Below are positions 10,654 to 61,458 of a stretch of DNA of 64,000 bases, piece by piece. A program made the position numbers and the translations under genes. Location: positions 88-64,087 of the forward strand of contig CAVQGX010000039.1 of NCBI GenBank assembly GCA_963712115.1, written 5' to 3'. Within the stretch, counting starts at the first letter, position 1, and the number at the start of each line of letters is the position of its first letter. This DNA is from an uncultured delta proteobacterium. Its GTDB lineage: Bacteria > Desulfobacterota > Syntrophobacteria > BM002. The notes under the pieces are model-generated. The model did not search any database. It was given only the letters and a program-made list of their open reading frames with translations, and was not told the DNA's origin.

Positions 10654-10654
10654 A

Positions 10655-12077: not shown

Positions 12078-12169
12078 GTAAGCGGTGAGCGGTAAGCAGT
12101 AAGCGGTGTACTTCTCACATGGTAGATTGCTCAAGACCTACCGCTTACTGTTTACTGCTTACTGCTCAC
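12078..12169. repeat. Low-complexity 'stutter' hairpin (TAAGCGGT-type words and their complement)
   Basis: GGTAAGCGGTGAGCGGTAAGCAGTAAGCGGT at 12078-12108 faces TACCGCTTACTGTTTACTGCTTACTGCTCAC at 12139-12169. Confidence 0.7.
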
Positions 12170-12460
12170 TTCATATAATTGCTGCCTGTTGTCAGCTGCG
12201 AGCTGTCTGCTGATTGACCTGTTTCTTAATTCTCAGGTGAACACATCCGTGCTAGAATGCGTGGGTTTTCTGTAGGAGTAAACTCCCTCCGGTCTCCGAC
12301 TCTTGAGAGTCTACGACTCGGAGAGGCCGTAGGCCCCTCTGGGCCGGAGGCTGCTTGCGATAAGAGGGTAGCTTTTTTCTTTCATTTTAGGCATTTTAGA
12401 TAATTTAGTTCACTTTAGCTCATTTGAATGCCGGGCCTCCGTGCCCGCCAAAAAAGTCTT

Positions 12461-45853: not shown

Positions 45854-46498
45854 CTAGAATATCAAGGAGAGGGTGAAGATGGCCAGGTTTCCCAGTGCAT
45901 GGATGGTGATGGGGACAATCAGGCTGCCGCCGAACTCATAGGCCAGAGCAAAGAGAAGCCCCCCCACCAAACGGGTGACGGGGATTCCATGACTAATGGG
46001 GTGGCAGAGTACGAAGATCAGGGTGCTGAGAATAAGGGCCACAATTACCCCCCATCGTCGCAAAAAACCATAGAGTATTCCCCGAAAGAAGACCTCTTCC
46101 GCTACGGGTCCTAAAATCCCGCCAACAATGAAAAAAAGAACAAGATCACCGGTCTGCGTGGGTAGGCGGGCTTTTATTAAGGTGAGAGGATTTATGGAGG
46201 CAGCGAACAATCCAACACAGGCAACGGAACCGATCGCTCCAAAACCGGCCGACCAGAGCAGCCCTTTTTTCAAACCAGAGACCATCTCGGATCGAGCCAA
46301 GCCTATGGAAGGTAATCCTTTCCCCCAGGTCACAACAATCAGGATAATCAGGAGTATTTGGAGGAGACGGGCGCCAGCCAGAATAAGCATGGGGAGGTAG
46401 CCGGACTTTGAAGTCACCACCCATGTACCCAGTTCTACGGCAATTACTGCAGAAAGGCAGAAGAACAGGGTTCTTAATTCGATTTTCTTTGCTTCCAT
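45854..46498 (-). CDS. CPBP-family intramembrane glutamic endopeptidase (CAAX/Abi)
   Basis: Motifs GPVAEEVFFRG (EExxxR), FVLCH (FxxxH) and IHALGN (HxxxN). The likely start is MEAKKIELR at 46498; the track ORF starts at 46531. Confidence 0.8.
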   Translation of the reverse strand: MEAKKIELRTLFFCLSAVIAVELGTWVVTSKSGYLPMLILAGARLLQILLIILIVVTWGKGLPSIGLARSEMVSGLKKGLLWSAGFGAIGSVACVGLFAASINPLTLIKARLPTQTGDLVLFFIVGGILGPVAEEVFFRGILYGFLRRWGVIVALILSTLIFVLCHPISHGIPVTRLVGGLLFALAYEFGGSLIVPITIHALGNLAIFTLSLIF

Positions 46499-47976
46499 CC
46501 TAGGGCCCGCAAGGCTTTGTAAGCATACCATTGGTTGTACCAGTGATCAGATGTTTTGATCCTTGTTAGAATTTCGCTGACACCCCTGCTATCTCCCCTC
46601 CGCCCGAGCCCATGAAAGGCCATTGAAACCACATTGGGATGGGGATCATCCAGAAAGGCCAAGAGATCTCTGTAGGTTTCAGGTCGGCGGCTTACACCCA
46701 GTCCCCTCACCAGCCAGTAGCGCTCTGCTATGTGTGGGCTTGCCAGCAGCCTTGAATAGGTCGGAAAGCTGCTTACTTCCAGCCCTTTTCGCTCTATGAT
46801 CCTCAAGGCGGCAACTCTCTCTTGCCAGGACTTTGATGCCAGAGCCCGGGGTACATCCTTAAAATCCATATCTGTCCATCTCGTGTGTTGGAATGGGATC
46901 AGGATGCTCAGGCCAACAATTAGACAAAGGATTGAAGCCATCAAAGAAGAGATCCTAACATCCAGAAAAAAGCAACAGAGGAGACGGATCAGAGCATGGA
47001 GGAGAAGATAGAGGGTTGGGGGCAATCCCATGACAAGAGAGTAGAAGGTAAAATGTCGGAAGAAACCGTGTCTGTCACTCTTAGCAGAGAATTCTTCCAA
47101 TGCAGTTGCCGGTTCGGAGAGAAAATCTGCAAATGTGGTCAGGAGAATTGTCCTGCCCTCATGGTTGAAGGCCAGCATACCACCATCTTGTACCACCTTA
47201 AGGTCAACTGCATCATCTGTTTCCACAGCAAGGTAGTCACGGTCGAGCAATTCCATCTCCACCCGCGCCAGCAGGGCACCCTTTTTAAGGTTTTGCAGAC
47301 TGCAAGTTTTGAGAAGCTTCTGGTCCAGAGACTTGAAGACCTCCGCAGGGTAGAGGGTATAGTCATAGTAAAAATCGTTAACCTTTATCCCAACTGGATT
47401 TGAAAGGAGGAAAATGTCTCTGAAGTCCACGAAAAAGTTTTTGTTAATTTGGGATGCCCACAAAAGTGCCAGGACCACAACCGGGATGGTGTGTAGCGCT
47501 CCGTGGACCCACCCCCTATTACCGGGACGTGGGGGTATCCATCTGAGGGTAGCGAGGAAAACCACAGGGGGTATGACAAAAAAATAACATGTGGCCCCAA
47601 AGGAAAAGCCCCGGTGATTCAGCTCCACCAGAGAACCAAGCCAGAACAGCAAAAAAACGATCAAAATATATCGGTTTCGGGAAAACACCCGATTCCATAG
47701 CCAGGCCGCTCCGATGGAGAGTAGGGTTAGACCTGCACCTACACTTAGAGTGAAAAAAAGACCGCCAAAGAAGGCGGGAGCGAATTCCTGGAGGCTGGGC
47801 ATGGTGCGTTGGTTCGGTATGGTGAGGTAGCCGGCAGCTTTTATGATCGATAGGTTGCGGTAGAGATCGAGGTTGGACAGGTAAACCTGGATGGCAGCTA
47901 TAACCTGGGCTACAAGGAGGCCCAGCAAAAGCGCTCTGGCCGTGTAGGGAAGTCTATTTTCTAAGTTTTGGCTCAT
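46474..47976 (-). CDS. Polytopic membrane protein with C-terminal HEAT-like repeats
   Basis: 500 aa. The N-terminal ~330 aa contain multiple TM helices. The C-terminal SWQERVAALRIIERKG...DPHPNVVSMAFHGLGRRGDSRGVSEILTRI...WYAYKALRALGW is a HEAT/PBS-lyase-type repeat pattern. Confidence 0.6.
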   Translation of the reverse strand: MSQNLENRLPYTARALLLGLLVAQVIAAIQVYLSNLDLYRNLSIIKAAGYLTIPNQRTMPSLQEFAPAFFGGLFFTLSVGAGLTLLSIGAAWLWNRVFSRNRYILIVFLLFWLGSLVELNHRGFSFGATCYFFVIPPVVFLATLRWIPPRPGNRGWVHGALHTIPVVVLALLWASQINKNFFVDFRDIFLLSNPVGIKVNDFYYDYTLYPAEVFKSLDQKLLKTCSLQNLKKGALLARVEMELLDRDYLAVETDDAVDLKVVQDGGMLAFNHEGRTILLTTFADFLSEPATALEEFSAKSDRHGFFRHFTFYSLVMGLPPTLYLLLHALIRLLCCFFLDVRISSLMASILCLIVGLSILIPFQHTRWTDMDFKDVPRALASKSWQERVAALRIIERKGLEVSSFPTYSRLLASPHIAERYWLVRGLGVSRRPETYRDLLAFLDDPHPNVVSMAFHGLGRRGDSRGVSEILTRIKTSDHWYNQWYAYKALRALGWKQRKSN

Positions 47977-48224: not shown

Positions 48225-49100
48225 TTACCACTTGCTGATCTTTTTTACCAGTGCGAGGACGCTCTTTTCCGGTCTGAAGCTGAGTTCTTGACATGGGACC
48301 TGAGCTGCTAGCTGGCTGAAGAACTCCAGAACAAATTGCATCCCTTGGAAGTCCCACAGGGGGGGAAAGGAACAGGTGAGGAGGTGCGATACCGGATCGA
48401 GCCCTTTCATATCTTTGACCGAATTCTCCTGTCCATGGCTCAGGAAGAAAATTCTTTCTAACTTGGCTTCCCGAGGCGAACCGAATGCGGCCTCGCCATG
48501 CCAGGGCGTGCCGTAAATCCTGAACTCACGACCCTGTTTTCGCACAATAACTCTGTCGTCGCTGAGTATATCAACACCATTTTCTTGAGCCCACATCCTC
48601 GCCAGCGTGCTTTTACCAGCCCCGGATTCCCCCAAAAAAAGGATTCCTCTATCCTCAATTACGATGCCGCAGGCGTGAAGGATGACTCCCCTTTCCTGTG
48701 CCAGGTAATGGATGAGCAAAAGTTCCATAGTGGGACCAAAGAAGGGGTCGATGAAGCGGATACAGTTGTCGGCAAAGTAAAGGTCAGCGTGTTTGAGATG
48801 GTGCGGCAAAAAGAGGGTTCTCTGGAGGTCAGCCATTTCCGGGAAAAGTCTGATCAATGACGTACCGTTTTCACGGTACAGAGTCCAGATCGGGGGGGAC
48901 TCGAAAACTTTTTCTCCAACCACCATGTCAGGGATCCCGAGGTGCAGTTGAAGGCTGATGTCGGTTTTTCCTCGGGCGACAAAGGGAAGATAGGCCGGCG
49001 CTATTTCCCCAAAGACTTTTCCTGCAATGGAAATAGCCACGTCTCCAATTCTGATGGCCACGTTTTTTTGCGACATAAGCATTAAGGTTAAGTGAACCAC
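48225..49100 (-). CDS. HPr-kinase-like P-loop protein (RiPP cassette A)
   Basis: 291 aa. ILHACGIVIEDRGILFLGESGAGKSTLA resembles the HprK/P C-terminal domain P-loop (GxSGxGKS). It is a paralogue of 57928..58854. Confidence 0.7.
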   Translation of the reverse strand: MVHLTLMLMSQKNVAIRIGDVAISIAGKVFGEIAPAYLPFVARGKTDISLQLHLGIPDMVVGEKVFESPPIWTLYRENGTSLIRLFPEMADLQRTLFLPHHLKHADLYFADNCIRFIDPFFGPTMELLLIHYLAQERGVILHACGIVIEDRGILFLGESGAGKSTLARMWAQENGVDILSDDRVIVRKQGREFRIYGTPWHGEAAFGSPREAKLERIFFLSHGQENSVKDMKGLDPVSHLLTCSFPPLWDFQGMQFVLEFFSQLAAQVPCQELSFRPEKSVLALVKKISKW

Positions 49101-49172
49101 GAAGAGTACGAAGATGTTAATATCATTATTTAAATTTGCTTTATGCGATTCTTTGATAAAGGGAAAAAATCT

Positions 49173-49682
49173 TTAATTGCCCCCCTTTACAAAAGGGGGA
49201 CTTTTATGATCCAGTTCCCGTAAAAACCTCTGAAAAACACTCCTCTTCAACCGAGCAAGCCACAGGTAAAGCATGCTCCACAGTCTGACTCTCCAGCGGT
49301 AAGGGTCGATGGTGCGATGACCTCGCTCCAGCCAAACAACCTTGCCCAGGACCTGTTGCGCTTCCACCGGGCAATCGCAGGTCGTGGAAGCGTCCCCCCG
49401 CAGGATAAAGGTGAGTCCAGAACCGTTTCTTTCCTCTATATTCACTATGCGATGGGCAATCAAACCGCTCTGAAGGCGAAAGAGAATAATGTCTTTCTTT
49501 TTGAGCTTGGCTGGCGCTGCAGGCTCAACCGTGATCACGTCACCATGGCGAATGGTGGGATGCATGCTTGTTCCAGGGGCTCGGAAACGCACTCCTAAGC
49601 CGAGGCTCAACACCTCACCACTCAATTGACCAAAACTCGGCGATGAGATCCGAGTTTTCAATGCAAGGTCCGCCTTATTCAC
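49173..49682 (-). CDS. SipW/archaeal-type S26 signal-peptidase-like protein without a membrane anchor (cassette A)
   Basis: GTG start. GTSMHPTIRHGDV (Ser box), IAHRIV (His box) and RGDAS..CD (the GDN-type box). No N-terminal hydrophobic helix is evident. Confidence 0.7.
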   Translation of the reverse strand: MNKADLALKTRISSPSFGQLSGEVLSLGLGVRFRAPGTSMHPTIRHGDVITVEPAAPAKLKKKDIILFRLQSGLIAHRIVNIEERNGSGLTFILRGDASTTCDCPVEAQQVLGKVVWLERGHRTIDPYRWRVRLWSMLYLWLARLKRSVFQRFLRELDHKSPPFVKGGN

Positions 49683-49703
49683 GGTGTCAATAGCCTCGAA
49701 CCA

Positions 49704-49868
49704 TCAAGAGCCTGGGCCGGAGCAGGGTGAGGCCGGCAGACCGCATTCAGCGCCGTCAGGGCCGAGACTTCCAGAGCTTTTGCAAAAGGCCAGGACGGCA
49801 CACTTGGCGTCTAGACTCACCCGCTTAACTTCAGGCTTCTTATATTCTTTCTTCTTACTTTTCTCCAA
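49704..49868 (-). CDS. Candidate RiPP precursor peptide A (54 aa, TTG start), not in the ORF track
   Basis: My translation of the minus strand is (M/L)EKSKKKEYKKPEVKRVSLDAKCAVLAFCKSSGSLGPDGAECGLPASPCSGPGS-stop. An in-frame TAA lies 4 codons upstream. AAGGA sits 6 nt before the TTG. The ORF ends 21 bp before the S26-like gene. The leader EYKKPEVKRVSL parallels KYEKPLIIPFNSL of precursor B, and both cores have 4 Cys. Confidence 0.55.
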   Translation of the reverse strand: MEKSKKKEYKKPEVKRVSLDAKCAVLAFCKSSGSLGPDGAECGLPASPCSGPGS

Positions 49869-50151
49869 GGTTTTTCCTTACAAAAGTTAGAACCAAGTTT
49901 CGCTTGCGATTTGAAGGCTCCTACCTCTTACAATAAATGACAGCGCTACGCTGTCATTTATTGTAAGAGGTAGGGGTCAGGGGTCGGGAGTCAGGGATCA
50001 GTATAAAAATAGTTCCTAAGTATTAAATAATTTTATAATTTTTATACAAAGTTTTACCTCTGCAGGTTGTGCTGTTTGGGGCTAGGATTTGCTTGACACA
50101 CTTGAATGAAGTATTTACTATGGATTAAAGTAAACACTTGGAGGAAACAAA

Positions 50152-50415
50152 ATGGGAATAGTGACGGCCAAACAACTGAAACAAAGAACAGGTGAAATCA
50201 TTAAGCGACTAAAATCAGGTGAAAGCTTCACCCTGACACACCGAGGTAAACCCGTTGCAGTTATTAACCCTTCTTTATCAGAAGAGGAAAGAATCTCTCC
50301 GGGCTTGAGATCATTCGAGGAAGCGTGGGAGGATATTGAAAGACAGTTGGAGAAAACTAAACCTCCATTCAAGAGCTGGAAGGAGGCAACCAGGTGGGCT
50401 CGAAATCGGGTGTAG
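50152..50415 (+). CDS. Phd/YefM-type antitoxin
   Basis: MGIVTAKQLKQRTGEIIKRLKSGESFTLTHRGKPVAVINP is the typical Phd/YefM N-terminal fold. It overlaps the downstream PIN gene. Confidence 0.7.
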   Translation: MGIVTAKQLKQRTGEIIKRLKSGESFTLTHRGKPVAVINPSLSEEERISPGLRSFEEAWEDIERQLEKTKPPFKSWKEATRWARNRV

Positions 50416-50846
50416 TTTTAATTGATACTAATATTTTTGTCATAGACCTGCGATACAGCAGGGATATTCACTATAACGAGAATCTTGCATTTCTCAATGT
50501 CGTAGCTGAAAAGGGAGTAGGTTTTACGACTATTGTTAATCTGTTGGAGCTTTGCGGAATTCTTTCGTTCAATCTCAACGAAAAGCAATTGCTCGAACTG
50601 TGGTTCTATTTTCAGGATAAATACAAGGTGACTGTACTCCCCACCCCTGACCTCACGAGTAATTTTCCCACCATAGGAATTCAAGAGCTATTCGATGTTT
50701 TACAAAATCGGGCTTCACTTGGTGATGCCTTGATGATCACTGTTGCGGCAAAGTATTTACCTTTCATTACCACACTGGTCACTTGGGATGATGAACACTT
50801 CAAAGGTAAATTCCCTGGTAATGTCATGACTCCAGAGGAATACTAG
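50394..50846 (+). CDS. vapC: PIN-domain toxin (VapC-like)
   Basis: VVLIDTNIFV carries the first acidic residue, and the size and the overlap with the antitoxin gene fit the family. Confidence 0.65.
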   Translation: MGSKSGVVLIDTNIFVIDLRYSRDIHYNENLAFLNVVAEKGVGFTTIVNLLELCGILSFNLNEKQLLELWFYFQDKYKVTVLPTPDLTSNFPTIGIQELFDVLQNRASLGDALMITVAAKYLPFITTLVTWDDEHFKGKFPGNVMTPEEY

Positions 50847-51218
50847 ACCCCAGGTCCCACCGGTCTGTGATCTGCTTCGCCGGGATCTGGCGCACAGCTC
50901 TTGTTTGATCTACAGCTAATTGGTGTCCATCTGGAAACTACCCAGTGTTATTCTCAGCCCTTCGGCAAGACCTGCCGACGAACTCAGGTCGAGTCGCTCA
51001 GGGCAGGCTCCGAGAAGAGACGCTCTGTCATCCTGAAGCCTTCGGCAAGCTCAGAGCCTGCCCTGAGCCTGTCGAAGGGATAGACTCCGCGAAGGATCTT
51101 GAGATTCTTCGTCGTCCCGCATAAGCAGGACTCCTCAGAATGACAATCCAAAAGAGGTGTCTCCCGATGGAGACAAACTAGTTTGAGGAACGGCCTTCTT
51201 TATGCTAGGTTGTTTCGC

Positions 51219-51680
51219 ATGAAGGTTCTGTCAAGGAAAAAGTTGGATCAGAAAGAGAAAGATCTCTTGATTTCGCAGCTCAGGGAGTTGCTTTCGGGAA
51301 AAGAACCTGTTTTGTTTGCCTATCTTTATGGGTCTTTCTTAGGGGAGGGATTTTTCCAGGATATCGACGTAGCAGTGTACTTTGATTCGCCTGCCTTCAA
51401 GGATAGTAGCGACATGTTGAATTACTCCCTCGCCTTGAGTGCAGAGTGCGATATGGCCACCACTGGTGTGACCTTCGATCTCAGGCCTCTCAATTTGGCT
51501 CCCCTTCCATTCAGGTTCGACGTCGTGACCCAAGGGCGAGTCCTTTACACTAGGGATGAAGAGCTTCGGGTTGATTTTGAGGCGCGCACTCGAAGCCTCT
51601 ACTTCGACTTTTTACCCCATCTGAGGTTTTACTTTAGGAACATCGTCTTAGGAGAATCGGATGAACGACTTGGAGAATAG
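51219..51680 (+). CDS. mntA: MntA-type minimal nucleotidyltransferase antitoxin
   Basis: LFAYLYGSFLGEGFFQDIDVAVYF (GSx10-11DxD motif). The likely ATG is at 51219. Confidence 0.7.
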   Translation: MKVLSRKKLDQKEKDLLISQLRELLSGKEPVLFAYLYGSFLGEGFFQDIDVAVYFDSPAFKDSSDMLNYSLALSAECDMATTGVTFDLRPLNLAPLPFRFDVVTQGRVLYTRDEELRVDFEARTRSLYFDFLPHLRFYFRNIVLGESDERLGE

Positions 51681-52095
51681 TGTTCTGAACCGCCTATTCA
51701 CAGAGATGGATGAATCCCTCCGTAAGCTTATAAGTCTTTCGAAGCTTTCAGAAGATGAATTCCTAAGCCACTATGAAAAGATCGATACCTCCAAATATAA
51801 TTTCATTGTAGCTATTGAAGCCATAATAGACATCTGCAATCGAATCATTTTAAAGCGAAAACTTGGCTTTCCACAGGACTATTCCGATGTCATCAAGCTT
51901 ATGAGTCAGCAAGGGGTGTTGGAAGGGGATCTGGTCGGGCGGTTGTTGGAGATGGTCAAGTTCAGAAACATGCTGGTCCATCTTTACTGGAAAATAGAAA
52001 ATGACAGGCTATACAAGTATTTAAAGGAAAACCTCGGCGATTTTGAAGCATTCAAAGAGGCTATCAGGAAGTACCTCAAGAAAAGTTCATCATAA
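51661..52095 (+). CDS. hepT: HepT (DUF86) RNase toxin
   Basis: FRNMLVHLYW matches the Rx4HxY catalytic motif. The gene overlaps mntA by 20 nt. Confidence 0.75.
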   Translation: MNDLENSVLNRLFTEMDESLRKLISLSKLSEDEFLSHYEKIDTSKYNFIVAIEAIIDICNRIILKRKLGFPQDYSDVIKLMSQQGVLEGDLVGRLLEMVKFRNMLVHLYWKIENDRLYKYLKENLGDFEAFKEAIRKYLKKSSS

Positions 52096-52176
52096 CCTCC
52101 CACGCATATCTCACATCTCACATTCTTGTCTTCTACTAAGATCGCCCGCTGGAGCTGGAAGTGAGGTCAGAGGAAG

Positions 52177-53313
52177 TCAAGGGAGGCGGGTTTTAAAGAG
52201 GAGTTCTACAGTATTCGCAATCGCCATGGGGGGAACGGTCAGGCCGAGGGCATGTGCCCGGAGATGGGCTACGCGGCAGAGAAAATCCACGGGCTCTTCC
52301 GGATCTTTGTTCTCTAACTCGCCATTGGCCGGGCACATGCCACACATTGCCTTGATCGCACAGGCAAAACACTTGGTCTGCCTGGTGATCTTTTTCTGCC
52401 GGATCTCCGAGATAAAGTCTTCCCAGCCATCTCGGAAACTGCCTTGTCGCAGGTCGTAGGTGTCATTGGCAGACATCCCGCACAGACTGAGGTTTCCTGA
52501 AGGATCAATGGCAAAGGAGCCCACCCCACCACCGCACTGATAGAGATCATCGGAATGGTTTGGGTCTAAACGAGGTGCTGCATAGCGCTCACAGAACCGG
52601 TCCCACTCTGCCAACCGTTCAGAGTCCTGCACATCGAGCTCCACCACCTCTTCCGGTGTGAGCCTGAGGGCTAGAGGAACCTGAGAGCCGTCAAGCCGCG
52701 GGTTGATCATGGCATCGAACCTGAATTCCAAGCCCAGGTCCTCCTCCACAAACCGCTTCATCTCCCAAATCTCATGCCTGTTTAAGGTCATGGTAACGGT
52801 CTTGAGCTTCACGGGCATCCCACGCTCCATGAGCAACCTAATCCCTCGCAGGCAGCAGTCGAAAGAACCTGGTTTGCCGGTTATCTTTTCGTAGGTCTTC
52901 TTGGTGTGCCCGTACAGAATAATTTCAATGTAATGAGGCGGGTACTCGGCTAGAGAATCTGCAATCTTTTCATTGATCAGGATTGCATTGGTAAACAGGG
53001 TGATGAGTAACCCTTTCTGCTTTGCGTACTTGTAGATAACAATGAAGTCCGGTCTGGCGAAGATCTCCCCGCCCGTGTACAGGAGCCAGAAGCAGCCCAA
53101 CTCCACAATCTCATCCAAAATACGACAGTGCTCGTCGTAGGAAAGTTCGCGGTCAAGGGCCTGTTGATTCGCTATGGGCAGATTGTTGTAACAGTGGGCA
53201 CATGCCAATGGACAGCGACGGGTTACCTCAATGGTCCCCCGTAAGGGGATGCGCTTGCCTGAAACCCGGTGGGAGACGCCAAGGGCAAAGTCCTCATAGC
53301 TAACCGTTTCCAT
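52177..53313 (-). CDS. Radical SAM/SPASM peptide maturase (cassette A)
   Basis: The cluster motif is RRCPLACAHC (CxxxCxxC). The C-terminal SPASM cysteines are CGGGVGSFAIDPSGNLSLCG and CFACAIKAMCGMCPA. Confidence 0.85.
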   Translation of the reverse strand: METVSYEDFALGVSHRVSGKRIPLRGTIEVTRRCPLACAHCYNNLPIANQQALDRELSYDEHCRILDEIVELGCFWLLYTGGEIFARPDFIVIYKYAKQKGLLITLFTNAILINEKIADSLAEYPPHYIEIILYGHTKKTYEKITGKPGSFDCCLRGIRLLMERGMPVKLKTVTMTLNRHEIWEMKRFVEEDLGLEFRFDAMINPRLDGSQVPLALRLTPEEVVELDVQDSERLAEWDRFCERYAAPRLDPNHSDDLYQCGGGVGSFAIDPSGNLSLCGMSANDTYDLRQGSFRDGWEDFISEIRQKKITRQTKCFACAIKAMCGMCPANGELENKDPEEPVDFLCRVAHLRAHALGLTVPPMAIANTVELLFKTRLP

Positions 53314-53549
53314 GGTTTATCTCTAACCTGAGAGTGTTCAATAATTCAGTCTTGCATGCCTTGAGGCTTCGACCTAACTGGATCCCCGCCTGCGCGGGGA
53401 TGACTGGTGATGGCATGGCATCGTCATTCCCGCGAAAGCGGGAATCCAGATCATATGCAGACATTCATCTAGTCATTATCAGGGGAAACTATTCATAATA
53501 TAATTTTGTAACTAGTTGATTTGTTAACTTAAAGAAATATTTAACAGTT

Positions 53550-53849
53550 TCAAGTTGCTCCAGACGGCTTGATCAGTCCGGAACCTTCGAGAGATCGGAG
53601 GAAATCCAAAAGGTCTTTTTCCGCCTCCACGGCCCCAACATCGTACTCGTTTTTCACAGCTTCCATTAGCTGCCGAACGGTTTTCTGCCCGTCGATGAGT
53701 TGCCAGATCATGGCGCCCACTTCACTAAGGGTAAAAACTCCCTCCAGATCACCCACGTGACCCTTGATGGGCACAATAATTATCTCACCAGCAACATCTC
53801 TGGTAACGAGTTCCTTCTCTTTGGCAAAACACGTGTCTAAAGTGTTCAT
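53550..53849 (-). CDS. PqqD-family peptide chaperone (RRE), cassette A
   Basis: 99 aa. ...EIIIVPI...VFTLSEVGAMIWQLIDGQKTVRQLMEAVKNEYDV..AEKDLLDFLRSLEGSGLI is the canonical PqqD pattern. Confidence 0.85.
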   Translation of the reverse strand: MNTLDTCFAKEKELVTRDVAGEIIIVPIKGHVGDLEGVFTLSEVGAMIWQLIDGQKTVRQLMEAVKNEYDVGAVEAEKDLLDFLRSLEGSGLIKPSGAT

Positions 53850-53891
53850 GTGAATTCTCCAGGGAGCGATTTTAAATACATCTTATTTTTT

Positions 53892-54012
53892 CCCCTCCCC
53901 TGGCGGGAGGGGATAAAGGGGGGTCTGAACCTGGTACATAGGTTACCCATGTCCGTGGTTGCACGGGGAGGGGGTCACCCCCACCCATACCCTCCCCCGT
54001 CAAGGGGGAGGA
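53892..54012. repeat. GC-rich palindromic REP cluster (CCCCTCCCCTGGCGGGAGGGG / CCCTCCCCCGTCAAGGGGGAGG units)
   Basis: It contains hairpin units plus GGTCTGAACCTGGTACATAGGTTACCCATGTCCGTGGTTGCACGGGGAGGGGG. An inverted copy lies at 54611..54762. Confidence 0.8.
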
Positions 54013-54610
54013 GATTTTAGTATTTCCGGATGGGCACTAACTTTCCACAAGCTTTGTTTCCTCATAGACTCCTGCAATTCTTGGGCCGAGACGTTTCACT
54101 GTCATTTGCCTTCGGCGTCATTGGGTCATTACGCTGCGCTGTCATTGGTTGTAATAGGTAGGAGCCTTCAAGTCGCAAGCGAAGCTTGCTCCTACACGAC
54201 ATTGTAAAGCTAAGATTTCTTGCTGCCAGTTGCTAGCTGTCAGCTGCCTGCTGAATACAACCGGCAAAACGGACTTAACTGGCTTAAAAGTCTTAGGGCA
54301 GCGGGCAGGGGACCACTAGGCACTACACAGAGGGAGTAAGTGTTAAGTAGTTGAGAATAACTCAATTTTGATTGTCTTTCCTTACTGGCTCCTGGCTCCT
54401 GACTCCTGGCTCCTTGTCCCAAGGGTTGTAATTGCGGATATTATCGTTTATAGATCTCTAAATTTTTATTATTTGCAATCATGGGAGCACAAACTGAGAG
54501 TGCCAATGCAGCCTCTTTCGGCCCCGATGTCCGACCTTCTGTTTTTATCCTGTCTTTTCCACTTCGAGCGCAAGCACCATCCCGAGAGGCTTTCCGATAA
54601 CCTTATAGAT

Positions 54611-54762
54611 CCCTCCCCCTTGACGGGGGAGGGTTAGGGTGGGGGTGAAAAATAAATGTATTTCCAGTTATTTTATATCCCCCCTCCCCGTGCAACCACG
54701 GACATGGGTAACCTATGTACCAGGTTCAGACCCCCCTTTATCCCCTCCCGCTAGGGGAGGGG
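54611..54762. repeat. Inverted copy of the GC-rich REP cluster
   Basis: It contains the exact reverse complement of the 53925-53975 segment (CCCCCCTCCCCGTGCAACCACGGACATGGGTAACCTATGTACCAGGTTCAGACC), with a ~30-bp AT-rich insertion. Confidence 0.8.
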
Positions 54763-54911
54763 AAGGGGGTTGTCGGACAGCCTCTCCCGTTTGTTTTCGT
54801 AAGAAAGAGATGCAAAACCAACGGCACGAAGTTTGCTTGAAGTTTATAGGATTGGAGTATTGGAGTATTGGAGTATTGGAGCAGCAAATTGTTTGAAGGG
54901 GAGGTTATCCC

Positions 54912-55199
54912 GTGATGCAAACTGAAAATCCCATAGCCAATCCTCTGATCGTACTTCGGGAGGAGTTTGATGACTGGGCTATACTTTTTGATCCTGATAC
55001 CGGTGATGCCTTCGGCCTCAATCCCATAGGCGTGCACATCTGGAAGCGATTGGATGGTAATCATTCAGTCAAAGACATCTTGCAAGATCTGCAAGAGGGT
55101 TATGAAGATGTGCCGGACGAGGCAGAGGGTGATCTCCAAGAGTTCATTGAGGATTTGGTCCAGCGTGGACTAGCAGGATACGAGATTCAGAAGGATTGA
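54912..55199 (+). CDS. PqqD-family peptide chaperone (RRE), cassette B
   Basis: 95 aa. ...WAILFDPDTGDAFGLNPIGVHIWKRLDGNHSVKDILQDLQEGYEDVPDEAEGDLQEFIEDLVQRGL. GGGGAGG lies upstream of the GTG-ATG start. Confidence 0.85.
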   Translation: MMQTENPIANPLIVLREEFDDWAILFDPDTGDAFGLNPIGVHIWKRLDGNHSVKDILQDLQEGYEDVPDEAEGDLQEFIEDLVQRGLAGYEIQKD

Positions 55200-55206
55200 T
55201 CCGATC

Positions 55207-56310
55207 ATGCAATTAATGAAAACCCCCAGATCTGTGGATCTGGCTATAACCGCCCGATGCAATCTGCGGTGTACTTACTGCAGCCATTTCACCGGTGCGG
55301 GCGACGTGGGTCAGGATCTCCCCAAGGAAGAATGGCTCCAATTTTTCGAGGAATTGAATCGCTGTGCAGTCATGAATGTGACAATCGGGGGAGGAGAGCC
55401 TTTTTGTCGGAAAGATTTACGCGAGCTCATTGAGGGGATTGTCGGCAACCGGATGCGGTTCAATATTCTAAGCAATGGAACATTGATTAATGATGAGATG
55501 GCAGCTTTTCTGGCTTCGACCGGACGCTGTGACGGGGTACAGGTCTCCCTTGATGGCTCGGTTCCGATGACTCATGATGCTTGCAGGGGAGAGGGGAATT
55601 TCATAAGAGCCATGGAGGGCATCAAGTCCCTCCAGAAATATGGCGTTCCTGTTCCCGTCCGGGTGACAATTCACAAATATAACGTAAGGGATCTTGAAAA
55701 TGTTGCCAAACTTCTATTGGAGGACATTGGTCTTCCAAGCTTATCCACCAACGCTGCCTCATATATGGGTCTCTGCCGGCAAAATACTGAACAGATCCAA
55801 CTCACTGCTGAAGAACGCTCCCTGGCCATGGAAACCCTTCTAGAACTCGACAAAAAATACAATGGCCGCATCAGCGCTTCCGCCGGTCCTTTGGCTGAGG
55901 CAGGAAATTGGCTCGAGATGGAAAAGGCTTGTCAGGAAGAGGAAGAAGGTATCCCGGGACGGGGCTATCTTACCAGTTGCAATGGACCCATGAGTCAAAT
56001 CGCCGTGCGTGCTGATGGGGTCATGGTGCCATGCATTCAAATGAGCCATATAGAGTTGGGTCGGATCAACAGAGATGATCTTAAGGAGATCTGGCAGGAA
56101 AATCGTGAACTGAAAAGACTGAGGGAGAGGCATAAAATTGCATTGAGCGAATTCGAGTTTTGTCAGGGGTGTGATTACATCAACTACTGTACCGGTAACT
56201 GTCCTGCTCTGGCCTATACGATTCTAGATAAAGAGAATCATCCGAGCCCGGACGCCTGTCTGAAGCGATTCCTGGAGGCAGGGGGAAGGCTACCGGAGGG
56301 GATTTTTTAA
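55207..56310 (+). CDS. Radical SAM/SPASM peptide maturase 1 (cassette B)
   Basis: ARCNLRCTYC (CxxxCxxC). The SPASM region is CNGPMSQIAVRADGVMVPC and CQGCDYINYCTGNCPA. Confidence 0.85.
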   Translation: MQLMKTPRSVDLAITARCNLRCTYCSHFTGAGDVGQDLPKEEWLQFFEELNRCAVMNVTIGGGEPFCRKDLRELIEGIVGNRMRFNILSNGTLINDEMAAFLASTGRCDGVQVSLDGSVPMTHDACRGEGNFIRAMEGIKSLQKYGVPVPVRVTIHKYNVRDLENVAKLLLEDIGLPSLSTNAASYMGLCRQNTEQIQLTAEERSLAMETLLELDKKYNGRISASAGPLAEAGNWLEMEKACQEEEEGIPGRGYLTSCNGPMSQIAVRADGVMVPCIQMSHIELGRINRDDLKEIWQENRELKRLRERHKIALSEFEFCQGCDYINYCTGNCPALAYTILDKENHPSPDACLKRFLEAGGRLPEGIF

Positions 56311-56336
56311 CCGCAGAGAGCGCAGAGAGCGCAGAG

Positions 56337-57494
56337 ATGTCAAAGTCAAGTGTTGAAAAAATGAAAGAAGAACGAGAAAGGCGCAAATACCCATTGAATC
56401 AGATTTATTTTTATCTGACTGAGGGGTGTAACCTTCGGTGCCGGCATTGCTGGATTGCGCCTAAATATCAGAGCGAGGATAACTCCTATCCAGCGCTGAA
56501 CCTGGATCTTTTCAAGTCGATTATTGAACAGGCCAAACCCTTGGGTCTAACCGGGGTCAAATTGACAGGTGGTGAGCCGTTACTCCACCCTCAGATTCAC
56601 GAGATTTTGGGGCTTATTCAGAAGGAAGACCTCAGCCTTAATGTTGAAACCAATGGAATTCTGTGCACGCCCGAGCTAGCAAGCAAGATGGCTACTTGCA
56701 AAAAACCCTTTGTTTCAGTGAGCTTGGATGGTGCAGACTCAGGGACCCACGAGTGGGTGCGGGGCGTCACGGGCTGTTTTGAGGCTGCTTTGAAAGGCAT
56801 TCAAAATCTCGTCGAAGCAGGCTTGAGACCCCAAGTGATCATGTCCATCATGCGCCATAACAAAGAGCAGATGAAGCAGGTCGTAAGGCTTGCTGAGCGC
56901 TTGGGTGCCGGGTCGGTCAAGTTCAATATCGTGCAACCGACCGCCAGGGGAGAAAGAATGCATGACTCTGGCGAAGTCCTTAGCATTAGAGAGCTTGTGG
57001 AACTGGGAGGATGGGTGGAGAATACTCTTTCGGCCTCAACGTCCTTGCGTCTTTACCACAGTCATCCTATTGCTTTTCGCCCCCTTGGGAAGATGTTTGG
57101 CAACAATGGTGACGGGTGCGGGACCTGTGGAATTCTAGGTATCCTGGGCGTTCTGGCCAACGGCTCTTATGCTCTATGCGGCATAGGGGAAACGGTACCC
57201 GATCTTGTCTTCGGGCGTGCAGCCACGGATCTTCTAGAAGATATCTGGACTAAGACACCCATCCTCTTGGAGCTTCGCGAGGGACTTCCTCAGCGCTTTG
57301 AGGGGGCGTGCGGCAGTTGTCTCATGAAACACATTTGTTCGGGCAACTGTGTTGCCCAGAATTACTACCTCAGCAAGAATATATGGGCGCCATACTGGTA
57401 CTGTGAGGAAGCGCATAATCAAGGGCTTTTTCCTGAGGCTCGTATGCTTCCGGAAGGGACCAAAAGGAATCATAGGGATTATGATATGGGTTGA
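56337..57494 (+). CDS. Radical SAM/SPASM peptide maturase 2 (cassette B)
   Basis: EGCNLRCRHC. The SPASM region is CGTCGILGILGVLANGSYALCG and CGSCLMKHICSGNCVA. Confidence 0.85.
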   Translation: MSKSSVEKMKEERERRKYPLNQIYFYLTEGCNLRCRHCWIAPKYQSEDNSYPALNLDLFKSIIEQAKPLGLTGVKLTGGEPLLHPQIHEILGLIQKEDLSLNVETNGILCTPELASKMATCKKPFVSVSLDGADSGTHEWVRGVTGCFEAALKGIQNLVEAGLRPQVIMSIMRHNKEQMKQVVRLAERLGAGSVKFNIVQPTARGERMHDSGEVLSIRELVELGGWVENTLSASTSLRLYHSHPIAFRPLGKMFGNNGDGCGTCGILGILGVLANGSYALCGIGETVPDLVFGRAATDLLEDIWTKTPILLELREGLPQRFEGACGSCLMKHICSGNCVAQNYYLSKNIWAPYWYCEEAHNQGLFPEARMLPEGTKRNHRDYDMG

Positions 57495-57583
57495 GTCCCC
57501 AAGGCCTCAAGCGTGATAAGAGGATAGAGAGCCTTGGAGAATAAATCAAAGATTGAAGGTTTAAACCCTAGGAGGAAGCTATT

Positions 57584-57772
57584 ATGTCTCCTAAATATGA
57601 GAAACCATTAATTATCCCGTTCAACTCCCTTAAAGATGAAACTGGGCTCGGGCTTTGCAAGCCGCTTGGTTCAACAGATGCCGGGCAGTGTAGAACTGGT
57701 AGTACGGCAACACCGGGTGCATGCAAAAATGGTAGTACTGCAGGCGGTTGCAATAGCGGTAGTTCTCCATAG
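57584..57772 (+). CDS. Candidate RiPP precursor peptide B (62 aa)
   Basis: MSPKYEKPLIIPFNSLKDETGLGLCKPLGSTDAGQCRTGSTATPGACKNGSTAGGCNSGSSP. There are four C-x2-3-G-S-[TS] repeats, with Cys at 25, 36, 47 and 56. A strong AGGAGG lies 8 nt upstream of the ATG. The gene sits between the maturases and the kinase-like gene. Confidence 0.7.
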   Translation: MSPKYEKPLIIPFNSLKDETGLGLCKPLGSTDAGQCRTGSTATPGACKNGSTAGGCNSGSSP

Positions 57773-57927
57773 GCAGTTGCGCTAATGGAAGATTCGTGTC
57801 TGGTTCTTGGGCGGCATAGGGCTCGTGGTAAAGTTCCCTGATACTTTGGGAATGAAAGAGTTTTTTTGATACATGGAAGCACTTTGAATTAACTATCATC
57901 TGGTTTTAGAGTATTAAAAGTTGTCAA

Positions 57928-58854
57928 ATGACTACAATCGAAACACCACTAAAAGGTAACATAGGATATTCTTTGCGTTTGGCCAATGGCCAGTCGTGGC
58001 ACATCATAGCCACAGATGGGGTAAAGCCGTGGGTAGCGAAGCTAGCCTCAGTAATGGAACTTAAACCGTGGGATGGGAATGGTTATCAAAAGTTGATCTT
58101 CATGCGGAGAGGGACAGACAAGAAAAGTTGGCGGAAGTCTGGATCCTCTCTGCCCCCAGAGATTCAAAAGAATCTTCATGAGAGCAATGGCGAGGTTCGT
58201 GGATCTCCTGTCATCCAAACCTGGTCCCACTATGGCACCCAAGACGTCTTCTGCGAGATTGGAGATGAGCAGGGTTACGAGCGGGATATTGCCGGGATGT
58301 TGGTGGCAATTTATCCTATTTTTGAAAGGGCGCAAAACTCGGGTGGACTCGCCTTGCATGCTGCTATGCTTGAACGGGATGGGATCGGAGTTTTATTGGC
58401 AGCTCCAGGAAATACGGGAAAATCGACCTGTTGCCTTAGACTTGGCAGCCCGTGGAGGTCCCTTTGCGATGACGAGACCCTGGTCGTACGGGATCATCAG
58501 CAACAATATCTGGCACACCCTTTCCCAACTTGGAGCGATTACCTCTTGAAACGCTACAAACGCACATGGAACACTGAATATCATATTCCGTTAACCGCGA
58601 TATTCTTTATAGAACAGGCTATGCATGACGAGGTGCTTCCCATTGGGCAGGGGGAAGCAGCGGTATCCATCCACCATTCAGCGATGCAGATGTGTCGTCG
58701 CAGATTGTACCATCTGGGTCGCAAAGAGTCTAAGTCTTTAAAACTGAAGCTGTTTGATAACGCCTGCGAAATCGCCAAAGCTATCCCGGCTTTTAAGCTA
58801 AAAGTGAGCTTAAAAGGACGGTTTTGGGAGAAGATTGAAGCGGTTTTGCCATAG
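57928..58854 (+). CDS. HPr-kinase-like P-loop protein (cassette B; possibly ScmC-like)
   Basis: 308 aa. ALHAAMLERDGIGVLLAAPGNTGKSTCC resembles the HprK/P P-loop region. It is a paralogue of 48225..49100. Confidence 0.65.
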   Translation: MTTIETPLKGNIGYSLRLANGQSWHIIATDGVKPWVAKLASVMELKPWDGNGYQKLIFMRRGTDKKSWRKSGSSLPPEIQKNLHESNGEVRGSPVIQTWSHYGTQDVFCEIGDEQGYERDIAGMLVAIYPIFERAQNSGGLALHAAMLERDGIGVLLAAPGNTGKSTCCLRLGSPWRSLCDDETLVVRDHQQQYLAHPFPTWSDYLLKRYKRTWNTEYHIPLTAIFFIEQAMHDEVLPIGQGEAAVSIHHSAMQMCRRRLYHLGRKESKSLKLKLFDNACEIAKAIPAFKLKVSLKGRFWEKIEAVLP

Positions 58855-58871
58855 ATAACCAAAGAGAAGAA

Positions 58872-59513
58872 GTGGAAGAGACGCAACCAATAAAACCAAT
58901 AGAGTTAGGTTCAATAAATTACATTGGCCCCAGCATGAATCCAATTCTTAAAGCTGGAGATGTTCTCCGAATTGTGTCTTATGAGGGGCAAGAAATCCGA
59001 CGGGGAGATGTGATTGTTTTTGTTGCTCCCGGAGGTGATTTTAAGGTCATTCACCGCGTAGTAGCCCTAGATTCGCAAGGAATTAGAACCCGAGGTGATA
59101 ACTCCACTGATGTCGACCCGTGGATCCTTAAACCAGATCAAGTCCTTGGTCGTGTAGTTTGCGCCCGAAGGCGGAATAAAAGGCTGAGAGTATTTGGAGG
59201 GCCAAAGGGGAGCTTGGTTGCTACAGTCATCAGAACCATTAACTGGATCGATTCGAGCGTGTCGAAGTTGCTGCGGCCACCATGTAAACGACTGGCCAGG
59301 ATAGGTTTATTCAAGCAGCTGTTGCCCGAGAGTGTGGAACTACAAGTTGTTTCGTTTAGCCGACCGTCAGGAACAGAGCTGCAACTGCTCATTGGGGGAC
59401 GCGTGATAGGCAGATGGCCAGCGGGAAAAAGTGGATGGAACATCCGGCGCCCTTTTCGGCTTTTTGTGGATGAAAATTCTCTGCCCGAAAATCCGTCTAA
59501 ATTGGGGCAATGA
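58872..59513 (+). CDS. SipW/archaeal-type S26 signal-peptidase-like protein without a membrane anchor (cassette B)
   Basis: GTG start. GPSMNPILKAGDV, VIHRVV and TRGDNSTDVD. No N-terminal TM helix is evident. Confidence 0.7.
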   Translation: MEETQPIKPIELGSINYIGPSMNPILKAGDVLRIVSYEGQEIRRGDVIVFVAPGGDFKVIHRVVALDSQGIRTRGDNSTDVDPWILKPDQVLGRVVCARRRNKRLRVFGGPKGSLVATVIRTINWIDSSVSKLLRPPCKRLARIGLFKQLLPESVELQVVSFSRPSGTELQLLIGGRVIGRWPAGKSGWNIRRPFRLFVDENSLPENPSKLGQ

Positions 59514-59580: not shown

Positions 59581-60120
59581 ATGGCTAGGACAAATGACAT
59601 AGAAAAAAGACTGTTAAAGGATATGCAGTTGGCGAAAAGAAAGTTTGAATGTTATGAAAAAATGTATATTGGTTTGAGTGGAGACGGAAAGAAATATCTT
59701 CAAGCACAATCTAGACGATATAAACGGAAAGTATCTGAGATACAAAAAATTATTCTCCCTGCTTTAAATGATATTTGTCCTACATGTATTAACTGTTGTA
59801 AATTATATACTCCAGAATTATCTATATATATTGCAGGTAGTATAGGTTGTTTTCAGTTTATAGATTATGTATTGGTAAGATGTAATAATATATTACCAAA
59901 TCCTTATTTTGAAAATATTAAGCATAATCTATGTCCATTTTGGGCTGAGGGTTGCATTCTACCAAGCGATTCTAGAAGCTATCTATGCACCAAATATTTT
60001 TGCGATAAACTCAAAAAAGAACTTGATATGAGAGTTATCTCAGAACACTTGGAAGTTTTGAAATCTATCATAAAGGATTTTTCAATTAAAAAGTGTTTGG
60101 ACTTGAATCCAGAAGCTTAA
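59581..60120 (+). CDS. YkgJ-family CxxCxxCC cysteine-cluster protein
   Basis: 179 aa. CPTCINCC is the CxxCxxCC signature of the putative Zn/Fe-chelating domain, and further Cys residues follow (CPFWAEGC, CTKYFC). The gene is markedly AT-rich compared with its neighbours. Confidence 0.55.
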   Translation: MARTNDIEKRLLKDMQLAKRKFECYEKMYIGLSGDGKKYLQAQSRRYKRKVSEIQKIILPALNDICPTCINCCKLYTPELSIYIAGSIGCFQFIDYVLVRCNNILPNPYFENIKHNLCPFWAEGCILPSDSRSYLCTKYFCDKLKKELDMRVISEHLEVLKSIIKDFSIKKCLDLNPEA

Positions 60121-60153: not shown

Positions 60154-61458
60154 ATGATTAGAGACAATAAGTATACTATGGATCGATTCACTTGTATAAA
60201 TCCGTCGACAGCATTGGCGCCAGAAAAGGCCATCCAAGAAATATATCCTGGTCTGAGGTTATGTGGAACCTCAGATAAATATTTTCTTGATCTTTCAGAT
60301 GAACTGTTGACCTATGTAAGGTCAGTTTTGAAAGATGAATCCCCCCAAGCTCCGGGGGCATCGTTAGATGAATGGTCCGGGCTGCTAAATTTCCTCCGAT
60401 CTAACTGGATAATCCCTTTTGTTTATCGAAAAATTGGCTCTTTGCCGCCGGAATGTCGCCCACCGGAACCGATCACCGATGAAATGAGACAGGATTTTCT
60501 CGTCAGTGTTGTACGTTCTCTTCACATGGAGAGGCAGCTCCAGGAAATTATCGAAGCGTTCCTGCAACAAGGTGTTCGAGTGCTGGTTTTGCGGGGACCT
60601 GCCCTGGCATTTTCACTGTATACAGATCCGGCGATGAGGTCCAGCTGTGATCTTGACCTGTTGGTGATTCCGGAGCAAGTGGTTCAGGCGCGAGATATTC
60701 TGGAAAGCTTGGGCTACAGATGTTTGGCCAGAAGGTTCGAAACCGCCAGGGACTTTTTCCGCGAGGAGTGCTTTGTCCATCAAGGAAATCAGGGTAACAA
60801 GTTTCCGGTTGATCTCCACTGGGTCCACTGGGAACTACACCCCTTTTTTAAGGGCAGTGAAGAGGTTGACATAGAGGATCTTTTTCAGAGGGGTTGGAAG
60901 GTTGAGACCCCAACTCTCGCTTTCGAAACCCTGCACCCAGTAGACTATCTCATTCATTCGGCAATTCACTTAGTAATGATCCATAAAAATGAAATGCGGT
61001 TAAGTTGGATTTATGACACGGCATTGCTTGCCCAACAACTTCAAGTGGACAATGACTGGGCAACATTGCAGGAGAGGAGCGTCGCCTGGAGGGCTCGGCT
61101 ACCATTAGAACATTGCCTGAAAATGGCTCAAGTTTGGGCTGGGCTCGAGCTACCGGACGGATTCGATGACTTTTCCACCTGGCCACGACCCACAGAGGAC
61201 GAGTCTGCTGTTTGGGCAGATACCATGCGGCACCATTGGGTGACTATATTGTTGAAACGGTCGCTGGCGAATCCCTCCCTTCTTCTAAAGAGGGTTCCGT
61301 CTTTGCTCCGTTTGCTCTTCCCACATCCTGAAATTGTGCGATTTTGCTACCCGACCTCCAGTAATTGGCTGCTGCCGTTCTCTTATGTGAGAAGGTGGTT
61401 TAGATGGATTGATGATCTGGTTATTAATAGGATTGGTGCGTTGAAACAAAAATCTTGA
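60154..61458 (+). CDS. Nucleotidyltransferase family protein (uncharacterised NTP_transf_5-like type)
   Basis: 434 aa. VLVLRGPALAFSLYTDPAMRSSCDLDLLV resembles the KG..Y......R...DiDlLV signature of this family. Confidence 0.55.
   Translation: MIRDNKYTMDRFTCINPSTALAPEKAIQEIYPGLRLCGTSDKYFLDLSDELLTYVRSVLKDESPQAPGASLDEWSGLLNFLRSNWIIPFVYRKIGSLPPECRPPEPITDEMRQDFLVSVVRSLHMERQLQEIIEAFLQQGVRVLVLRGPALAFSLYTDPAMRSSCDLDLLVIPEQVVQARDILESLGYRCLARRFETARDFFREECFVHQGNQGNKFPVDLHWVHWELHPFFKGSEEVDIEDLFQRGWKVETPTLAFETLHPVDYLIHSAIHLVMIHKNEMRLSWIYDTALLAQQLQVDNDWATLQERSVAWRARLPLEHCLKMAQVWAGLELPDGFDDFSTWPRPTEDESAVWADTMRHHWVTILLKRSLANPSLLLKRVPSLLRLLFPHPEIVRFCYPTSSNWLLPFSYVRRWFRWIDDLVINRIGALKQKS

Follow-up and report, generated by a model that had tools for sequence, protein, structure and literature searches.

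Candidate peptide kinases paired with anchorless S26 peptidases in SynChlorMet-type and related radical SAM peptide cassettes

Among the closest known relatives of the system analysed here are the lasso-peptide tailoring kinases PadeK, ThcoK and PsmK of the HPr kinase (HprK) superfamily. In the pseudomycoidin cluster, the HprK-type enzyme PsmK phosphorylates the C-terminal Ser, and PsmN, assigned to 'a family of uncharacterised nucleotidyltransferases', is needed to add a hexose to the phosphate (PMC6993621). A His-Lys-Asp-Asp motif is conserved in the lasso kinases, all four residues being required according to mutagenesis, and the C-terminal Ser of their substrates is 'extremely conserved' (PMC9266682, review). 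We analysed a stretch of 64,000 nucleotides (the window) from contig CAVQGX010000039.1 of an uncultured delta proteobacterium, in which open reading frame (ORF) listing and family scans revealed two divergent paralogous cassettes for peptides that are made on the ribosome and modified after translation (RiPPs), cassette A on the minus strand and cassette B on the plus strand. In each of them the genes for a precursor, an HprK-like protein and an S26-like peptidase are clustered; the P-loops and S26 boxes quoted for them in the original prediction, which was made from the letters of this DNA, were all found in their places. This pairing of kinase and S26 peptidase is probably the mark of an uncharacterised route in which a cross-linked peptide is phosphorylated and loses its leader inside the cell.

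The window has in common with the lasso systems the kinase superfamily, the His-Lys-Asp-Asp set, the PqqD-family partner, and the adjacent 'uncharacterised nucleotidyltransferase' and ATP-binding cassette (ABC) exporter that are often found in lasso clusters. The conserved C-terminal Ser of the lasso substrates is matched here in the cassette-A-type precursors and not in the ScmA type of cassette B. The lasso precedent of an HprK kinase with a nucleotidyltransferase, named in the original prediction, is correct (PMC6993621). Unlike the lasso clusters, the window encodes radical S-adenosylmethionine (SAM) enzymes with SPASM domains and Cys-rich cores, and the leader peptidase, a Cys protease in those clusters, would here be an S26 peptidase. 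As had been noticed from the sequence, neither a lasso cyclase nor a B2 protease is present among the ORFs typed at 41-64 kb. Further relatives are the radical SAM/SPASM RiPP systems of the ranthipeptide or sactipeptide type (for example, those of PapB and the SCIFF maturases): like the window, they have SPASM maturases, recognition of the PqqD type and a Gly/Ser/Thr-rich core in which Cys motifs are repeated. To our knowledge, these systems have no HprK-type kinase or S26 leader peptidase. A 2025 list of phosphorylated bacterial natural products, RiPPs included, contains no radical SAM system (PMC12639078).

Judged by family scores, the cassette at 54.9-63.5 kb (cassette B) is SynChlorMet, curated as ScmD/E/F/A/C (TIGR04248-04252), because its ScmD, ScmE, ScmF and ScmC exceed the curated cut-offs and lie contiguously at 54912-58854 in the usual gene order. 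Its features are as follows, with lengths in amino acids (aa).

54912..55199, plus strand: ScmD, PqqD family (TIGR04248, 134.7 bits against a cut-off of 100)
55207..56310, plus strand: ScmE, radical SAM/SPASM enzyme (TIGR04250, 645 bits against a cut-off of 400)
56337..57494, plus strand: ScmF, radical SAM/SPASM enzyme (TIGR04251, 620 bits against a cut-off of 400)
57584..57772, plus strand: ScmA-like precursor B, 62 aa, ending in SGSSP, with a KYEKPL leader and four Cys-led repeats (consensus C-x-x-G-S/T)
57928..58854, plus strand: ScmC, HprK-like predicted peptide kinase, 308 aa (TIGR04249, 312 bits against a cut-off of 125)
58872..59513, plus strand: anchorless S26 peptidase B (S26B), 213 aa, with a C-terminal extension of about 110 aa (TIGR02228, 54.3 bits against a cut-off of 51.85)
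59581..60120, plus strand: 179-aa Cys-rich protein, a sporadic accessory, with no Pfam or NCBIfam match
60154..61458, plus strand: PF14907 'uncharacterised nucleotidyltransferase' (7.2e-46) with a D166-x-D168 motif (RGPA...D166-x-D168)
61657..63513, plus strand: ABC exporter without a C39 peptidase domain, matching only ABC_membrane and ABC_tran and starting about 50 aa ahead of the transmembrane domain

Precursor B, encoded 155 bp upstream of the ScmC gene, scored 28.1 bits on the ScmA model TIGR04252, under its cut-off of 35; its leader motif and C-x-x-G repeats agree with those of 45 ScmA-like precursors from ScmC loci. The curated SynChlorMet set holds no model for an S26 peptidase, though the S26 gene is as frequent as those of ScmD, ScmE and ScmF. 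Literature searches with the cassette name, the TIGR accessions and the Scm gene names found no publication on the cassette, and searches that combined HPr kinase, radical SAM, RiPP, signal peptidase or S26, and leader peptide found nothing on this system. SynChlorMet is curated as gene families (TIGR04248-52, PF27840), yet it is biochemically uncharacterised. The earlier remark that the combination is not known as a characterised pathway had missed that cassette B is curated at the gene level.

Cassette A is a deep paralogue of cassette B within the same Pfam family, PF27840. It differs from SynChlorMet in having one radical SAM enzyme, a different precursor type and a distant kinase. Its gene order, read along the minus strand, is as follows.

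53550..53849, minus strand: PqqD-family leader-binding protein (PqqD_A; PF05402, 1e-16)
52177..53313, minus strand: radical SAM/SPASM maturase (PF04055, 1.4e-21; full-length SPASM maturase matches, no equivalog)
50152..52095, plus strand: two toxin-antitoxin modules (Phd/PIN and MntA/HepT), an insert that separates the maturase from its precursor
49704..49868, minus strand: precursor A, 54 aa, ending in SGPGS, with a KKEYKKPEV leader and Cys in the core
49173..49682, minus strand: anchorless S26 peptidase A (S26A) of the SEC11/SipW type, 169 aa, predicted cytoplasmic leader peptidase (TIGR02228, 53.6 bits against a cut-off of 51.85)
48225..49100, minus strand: HprK-like protein A (HprKA), 291 aa, predicted peptide Ser kinase (HprK_rel_B 5.8e-10, Hpr_kinase_C 2.8e-5)
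46474..47976, minus strand: 500-aa polytopic membrane protein with C-terminal HEAT repeats (PF13646, 8.2e-9; 52 hydrophobic windows)
45854..46531, minus strand: CPBP (Rce1-like) intramembrane protease (PF02517, 3.4e-17), at the distal end of the cassette

The stop codon of precursor A lies 21 bp ahead of the S26A gene, and the toxin-antitoxin modules are outside the peptide pathway. Against the Scm equivalogs, the cassette A proteins all scored below the cut-offs (HprKA, 18 bits on TIGR04249; PqqD_A, 30.7 bits against 100). Homologues of HprKA carry PF27840 ('ScmC'), in some cases weakly, and HprKA is only 25% identical to the ScmC of the window over 60 aa. The CPBP protease is kept with cassette A in close relatives only, namely in L083 and in a second copy of the cassette on contig C40 of the same genome, and it is present in 0 of 80 ScmC loci; the HEAT-repeat membrane protein is likewise kept in close relatives only. 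The HprKA ORF of 291 aa begins with GTG. Nearly all homologues are shorter, at 281-283 aa, and the alignment with the C40 copy begins only at residue 10; translation thus probably starts at an internal ATG (MSQKNVAIR...).

The linkage between kinase and peptidase was followed across genomes. A pattern scan with one genome per species yielded 80 ScmC loci from Desulfobacterota, Aminicenantes, Omnitrophota, Brocadiaceae, Chlorobi, Saganbacteria, Aerophobetes, Methanothrix and Methanocella, whose ORFs were translated and searched with the window proteins and a hidden Markov model of the S26B family. We then considered the 78 full-length ScmC homologues from other genomes that had at least 700 bp of downstream sequence. 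An S26 ORF directly follows ScmC on the same strand in 49 of them, with a median gap of 5 bp; a further 12 have one within 5 kb, and in 2 it is fused to the next gene. Components were counted in those ScmC loci from other genomes that span at least 12 kb; of these 58, S26 was found in 47, ScmD in 48, ScmE in 45, ScmF in 45, PF14907 in 31 and the ABC exporter in 32. Being as frequent as ScmD, ScmE and ScmF, the S26 gene belongs to the core of the cassette no less than the genes with Scm names. These results show that the ScmC-S26 pairing is more than chance. A scan of 401 genomes in the phylum of the window with HprKA gave matches in 63, and 13 of the 29 HprKA-type loci returned, each with 1.5 kb of flank, contained an S26-like ORF, most of the loci also having a radical SAM gene. 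The family is large: with clustering at 50% identity, a threshold of E<=1e-3 gives 11,326 clusters and one of E<=1e-10 gives 3,827.

The kinase-like proteins carry complete catalytic sets. The P-loop reads GESGAGKST in HprKA and GNTGKST in ScmC, and the His-Lys-Asp-Asp residues are H142, K163, D181 and D182 in the former and H144, K165, D181 and D182 in the latter; P-loop, catalytic His and Asp-Asp are common to both proteins and HPr kinase/phosphorylase. In an alignment of 20 ScmC homologues of 46-65% identity, H144, G164, K165, T167, D181 and D182 were invariant. A profile search of the Protein Data Bank sequences with ScmC matched HprK/P chains solely, with the His, the P-loop and the Asp-Asp pair in register with L. 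casei HprK/P. The AlphaFold2 model of ScmC (mean predicted local distance difference test score, 80.6) has a fold like that of phosphoenolpyruvate carboxykinase (PEPCK), and the structure search matched PEPCK, whose superfamily contains HprK. From these motifs and folds, the HprK-like proteins are likely to be active phosphotransferases.

The precursors point to a candidate acceptor in one of the two cassette types. The cassette-A-type set comprised 14 precursors (window, C40 copy, L004, L058, L083, L085, L088-L093, L095 and L096) encoded beside HprKA-type kinases of 32-91% identity. All 14 end in Gly-Ser, and a junction of the form ...E-A-V-L-x-x-C-K... is conserved among them. This invariant Gly-Ser mirrors the lasso substrates and, more than any other observation, argues for phosphorylation of the terminal Ser by HprKA, so that we favour, with moderate confidence, the C-terminal Ser as the A-type acceptor. 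The ScmA-like set comprised 45 precursors from 42 ScmC loci. Their leader contains [KR]x[YW]x[KR]PxL, and a core with 2-14 Cys begins 10-27 residues further on. Gly stands at +3 for 181 of the 223 Cys (the C-x-x-G repeat); positions +4 and +5 often hold Ser, Thr or Gly, and +6 often Ala. Two residues ahead of the first Cys, 31 of the 45 have Gly or Ala, and four residues ahead of it 38 have Ala, Gly, Val, Thr or Ser; this small-x-small pattern would be compatible with a signal-peptidase-like -3/-1 preference.

The S26-like proteins are related to the SEC11, archaeal and SipW-type signal peptidases I (MEROPS S26B), with which they share the minimal core with Ser-His-Asp in register, both exceeding the TIGR02228 cut-off. 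S26A has the boxes SMHP at 39, HRIV at 77 and GDAS at 96 (catalytic set S39, H77 and D97), and S26B has SMNP at 21, HRVV at 61 and GDNS at 75 (S21, H61 and D76). In HMMER, both of them aligned with human SEC11A/C through the boxes of Ser (GSMEP), His (IVHRV) and Asp (KGDNN). Among 22 aligned S26B-family members, H61 and D76 do not vary, S21 is nearly invariant, and the C-terminal extension of about 110 residues is strongly conserved. Ser, His and Asp (GxSMxP, HR[IVL] and GD[AN]) are kept in 11 of the 11 cassette S26 domains compared, the third box reading PDAS in S26C. The AlphaFold2 model of S26B has a confident N-terminal domain, and the top Foldseek matches of the model were SEC11C, SEC11A, SipA, LepB and SpsB, with modest E-values; the extension gave no structural match in Foldseek, and residues 130-154 were poorly modelled.

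The window proteins differ from the SEC11/SipW type in lacking a transmembrane anchor and a nearby Sec-type substrate and in being fused, in other loci, to cytoplasmic enzymes; S26B differs further in its family-specific extension. The maximal 19-residue Kyte-Doolittle mean was 0.99 for S26A and 1.36 for S26B, below the transmembrane threshold of 1.6, and no convincing transmembrane segment was present in any of the cassette S26 domains compared. Both ORFs are maximal, beginning at the first possible start after the upstream stop, so that no anchor is hidden upstream. The absence of an N-terminal anchor, claimed from the outset, is thus borne out. The precursors adjoining the S26 genes have hydrophilic, Lys-rich leaders without a hydrophobic core, unlike Sec-type signal peptides. 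A soluble S26-family protease with a dedicated substrate is not without precedent: SodX, the maturation protease of nickel superoxide dismutase, trims a short N-terminal pro-sequence from one adjacently encoded protein. The window proteins match SodX (TIGR02754) weakly, at 26.9 and 18.7 bits against a cut-off of 63.25; no sodN gene is present in the region, and the substrate here would be a RiPP precursor. At locus L083:9319-9819, on a public metagenome contig, a homologue of S26A is intact; the source gene caller missed it, calling a 64-aa ORF on the opposite strand, and co-occurrence counts based on annotation would therefore undercount such peptidases.

Natural fusion proteins link the cassette components and bear on where the S26 domain works. 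Those that include it are the following.

L005:11351-13387 and L035:10840-12831: S26 fused to PF14907, 678 and 663 aa
L090:462-1493, minus strand: S26 fused to a GNAT acetyltransferase, 343 aa
L091:300-1493, minus strand: S26 fused to a SAM-dependent methyltransferase, 397 aa
P0482: HprK-like protein fused to S26, with both catalytic sets intact, 463 aa

Because the fused partners need cytoplasmic cofactors (acetyl-CoA, SAM, nucleoside triphosphates and ATP), the S26 domain would work in the cytoplasm, and the predicted cytoplasmic action gains support from these fusions to nucleotidyltransferase, GNAT, methyltransferase and kinase. The GNAT and methyltransferase fusions are what would be expected if cleavage frees a new N-terminus for capping. 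A methyltransferase is also found fused to an HprK-like domain (P0371, 652 aa). On balance, these sequence features make the S26 protein a probable leader peptidase.

Taken together, the data suggest the following scheme, every step of which we infer. The PqqD protein would bind the [KR]x[YW]x[KR]PxL leader, and one or two radical SAM/SPASM enzymes would cross-link the Cys-rich core. The PF27840 HprK-like protein would act as an ATP-dependent peptide Ser kinase, in the A type on the C-terminal Gly-Ser, as the lasso kinases do; in the ScmA family the acceptor is possibly Ser or Thr of the C-x-x-G-S/T repeats. The PF14907 nucleotidyltransferase may optionally decorate the phosphate, a step for which PsmN is needed in pseudomycoidin. 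The anchorless Ser-His-Asp S26 peptidase would cut the leader in the cytoplasm, in ScmA probably behind a small-x-small motif whose last residue stands two positions ahead of the first Cys, and the peptidase-less ABC transporter would export the product. For precursor B of the window the predicted cut falls after ...ETGLG, one residue short of the first Cys. We consider this order of cross-linking, Ser phosphorylation and S26 leader removal reasonably probable as a whole. The hybrid route proposed in the original prediction is supported in part, by the catalytic sets, the missing anchors and the fusions, and not by its argument from the C-terminal Ser as far as the ScmA family is concerned: that argument fits cassette A (14 of 14 ending in Gly-Ser) and fails for ScmA. 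We found no cryptic anchors and no misaligned active sites in the S26-like proteins, and no catalytic residues missing from the two kinases.

The observations collected in this and the next paragraph weigh against the scheme. On the kinase side, PEPCK ranked above HprK, its superfamily relative, in the structure search with ScmC, and on the HprK/P equivalog TIGR00679 HprKA scored 21.4 bits against a cut-off of 240, ScmC giving no match. The last residue is Ser in only 8 of the 45 ScmA-like precursors, so that no terminal Ser is conserved in them. The C-terminal Ser as a general target of ScmC was rejected for the ScmA family on this count. One could also imagine that the HprK-like protein is not a peptide kinase: it might bind ATP as a scaffold or chaperone, or be a phosphorylase, and in that role hand the precursor to the radical SAM enzymes. 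Fusions of a radical SAM enzyme to an HprK-like domain (L103 and L106, 773 and 669 aa) would fit such a role, as would the absence of a conserved terminal Ser from ScmA and the conserved N-terminal half of ScmC, to which no function has been assigned. A pure scaffold would not need the full His-Lys-Asp-Asp set, which is invariant, and the A-type precursors keep their invariant C-terminal Ser, so we regard this explanation as unlikely.

On the peptidase side, 15 of the 78 ScmC loci have no S26 gene within 5 kb, and from these and the A-type loci L058 and L085, which also have none, the S26 peptidase appears to be dispensable or replaceable. No substitute protease was found in the ScmC loci without S26, where the neighbours are a DUF512 radical SAM enzyme, a glycosyltransferase, an electron transfer flavoprotein and sensor proteins. 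In precursor A of the window, Phe stands directly before the conserved Cys-Lys, so that a signal-peptidase-type P1 preference is poorly fitted if the cut is there. The S26-like protein might not remove the leader: it could be a non-proteolytic chaperone like SipA of S. pyogenes, work as a transpeptidase or macrocyclase, or cleave some other protein of the cassette, with the leader cut elsewhere, for example by the CPBP protease of cassette A. SipA (4n31) was indeed the third structural match, and the loci without S26, the CPBP protease in cassette A and the P1 Phe are in line with this idea. However, Ser, His and Asp are conserved in all of the cassette S26 domains, the CPBP protease occurs in close relatives only, none of the 80 ScmC loci having it, and the GNAT and methyltransferase fusions fit a newly exposed N-terminus. 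We give this alternative, like the scaffold, a low probability.

Phosphorylation followed by elimination is how lanthipeptides of classes II-IV are made, and the kinase might similarly activate Ser or Thr of the C-x-x-G-S/T repeats only transiently, yielding dehydro-amino acids that react with Cys to give lanthionine-like rings. Ser or Thr does stand at +4 or +5 after Cys in about one third of the 223 repeats at each position. Nevertheless, family scans found no lyase or cyclase domain in the cassette, the two radical SAM/SPASM enzymes already explain Cys cross-linking, and the A-type precursors indicate a terminal Ser, which is incapable of such a ring; we therefore judge an elimination route very improbable. 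That the S26-like proteins are ordinary secretory signal peptidases lying near RiPP genes by accident is effectively excluded, even though both score about 2 bits over the 'signal peptidase I' cut-off of TIGR02228, since they have no transmembrane anchor and are fused to cytoplasmic enzymes, the adjoining leaders are hydrophilic and Lys-rich, and the linkage to ScmC spans several phyla and archaea.

If phosphorylation of the cross-linked peptide and cytoplasmic leader removal by S26 are correct, several consequences follow. The S26 family, with its Ser-His mechanism, would be a new protease class on the short list of RiPP leader peptidases; HprK-type peptide phosphorylation, shown so far only in lasso peptides, would extend to radical SAM cross-linked peptides; and the long-orphaned SynChlorMet cassette would gain a testable pathway. 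The fusion proteins and the invariant C-terminal Gly-Ser would give concrete starting constructs and a predicted mass shift. PF27840 is phylogenetically broad, occurring in Desulfobacterota, Aminicenantes, Omnitrophota, anammox Planctomycetota, Chlorobi, Saganbacteria, Methanothrix and Methanocella. We tentatively propose, at somewhat less than even chances, that the anchorless S26 proteins are an unrecognised class of dedicated cytoplasmic RiPP leader peptidases which, together with the PF27840 kinases, would define a large family (at least about 3,800 clusters at 50% identity and E<=1e-10) of phosphorylated, radical SAM cross-linked peptides from methanogenic archaea and anaerobic bacteria, possibly decorated on the phosphate and with a C-terminal phosphoserine in the A type.

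The ownership of the nucleotidyltransferase and the exporter is complicated by the second copy of cassette A. Contig C40 carries a duplicate of cassette A (A') that is 82-97% identical, with a different insert at the same position, and a PF14907 copy of 88% identity lies with its ABC partner directly beside A'. In the window, cassette B separates the PF14907 and ABC genes from cassette A, and a long inverted repeat bounds the cassette-A side. Because the C40 pair adjoins A', the nucleotidyltransferase and the exporter may belong ancestrally to cassette A and serve it, or may serve both cassettes. Cassettes of the A and B types co-localise in L003, L004 and L058 as well.

Possible marks of rearrangement surround the cassettes. 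The arms of the inverted repeat at 53890-54011 and 54612-54764, in the 1-kb spacer between the cassettes, measure 85 nt (99% complementary) and 37 nt (95%) and are about 600 nt apart; beside the toxin-antitoxin insert, a related repeat arm of 59 nt recurs at 49888-49946. The repeat resembles an element of the miniature inverted-repeat transposable or repetitive extragenic palindromic type that marks rearrangement points. In both copies of cassette A, different inserts separate the radical SAM gene from the precursor: the toxin-antitoxin modules in the window, and about 9 kb in C40 (L002, approximately 3800-12600), where a giant secreted protein is encoded whose relative, a product of 6078 aa, has a C25 peptidase domain (as in L083). 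The gap between radical SAM gene and precursor looks like a recurrent insertion hotspot of cassette A.

A third cassette is present on C40 (C40:927-5524, L001), with two PqqD-like proteins, ScmE-like and ScmF-like enzymes, an HprK-like protein of 323 aa in which Asp-Glu replaces Asp-Asp, and an S26-like protein of 150 aa, whose gene is overlapped by a convergent methyltransferase gene. In the ScmC loci, homologues of the 179-aa Cys-rich protein of cassette B occupy the same position in just 2 of 80 (L013 and L022). The loci L033, L064, L042 and L014 include some with two to four tandem ScmC paralogues and several long ScmA-like precursors (up to 14 Cys and 129 aa), which suggests local expansion of kinase-precursor pairs. 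In L042, a locus without S26, a group-1 glycosyltransferase gene (L042:2043-3263) directly follows ScmC, an arrangement that recalls the glycosyltransferase beside a PsmK homologue in a cyanobacterial lasso cluster (PMC6993621).

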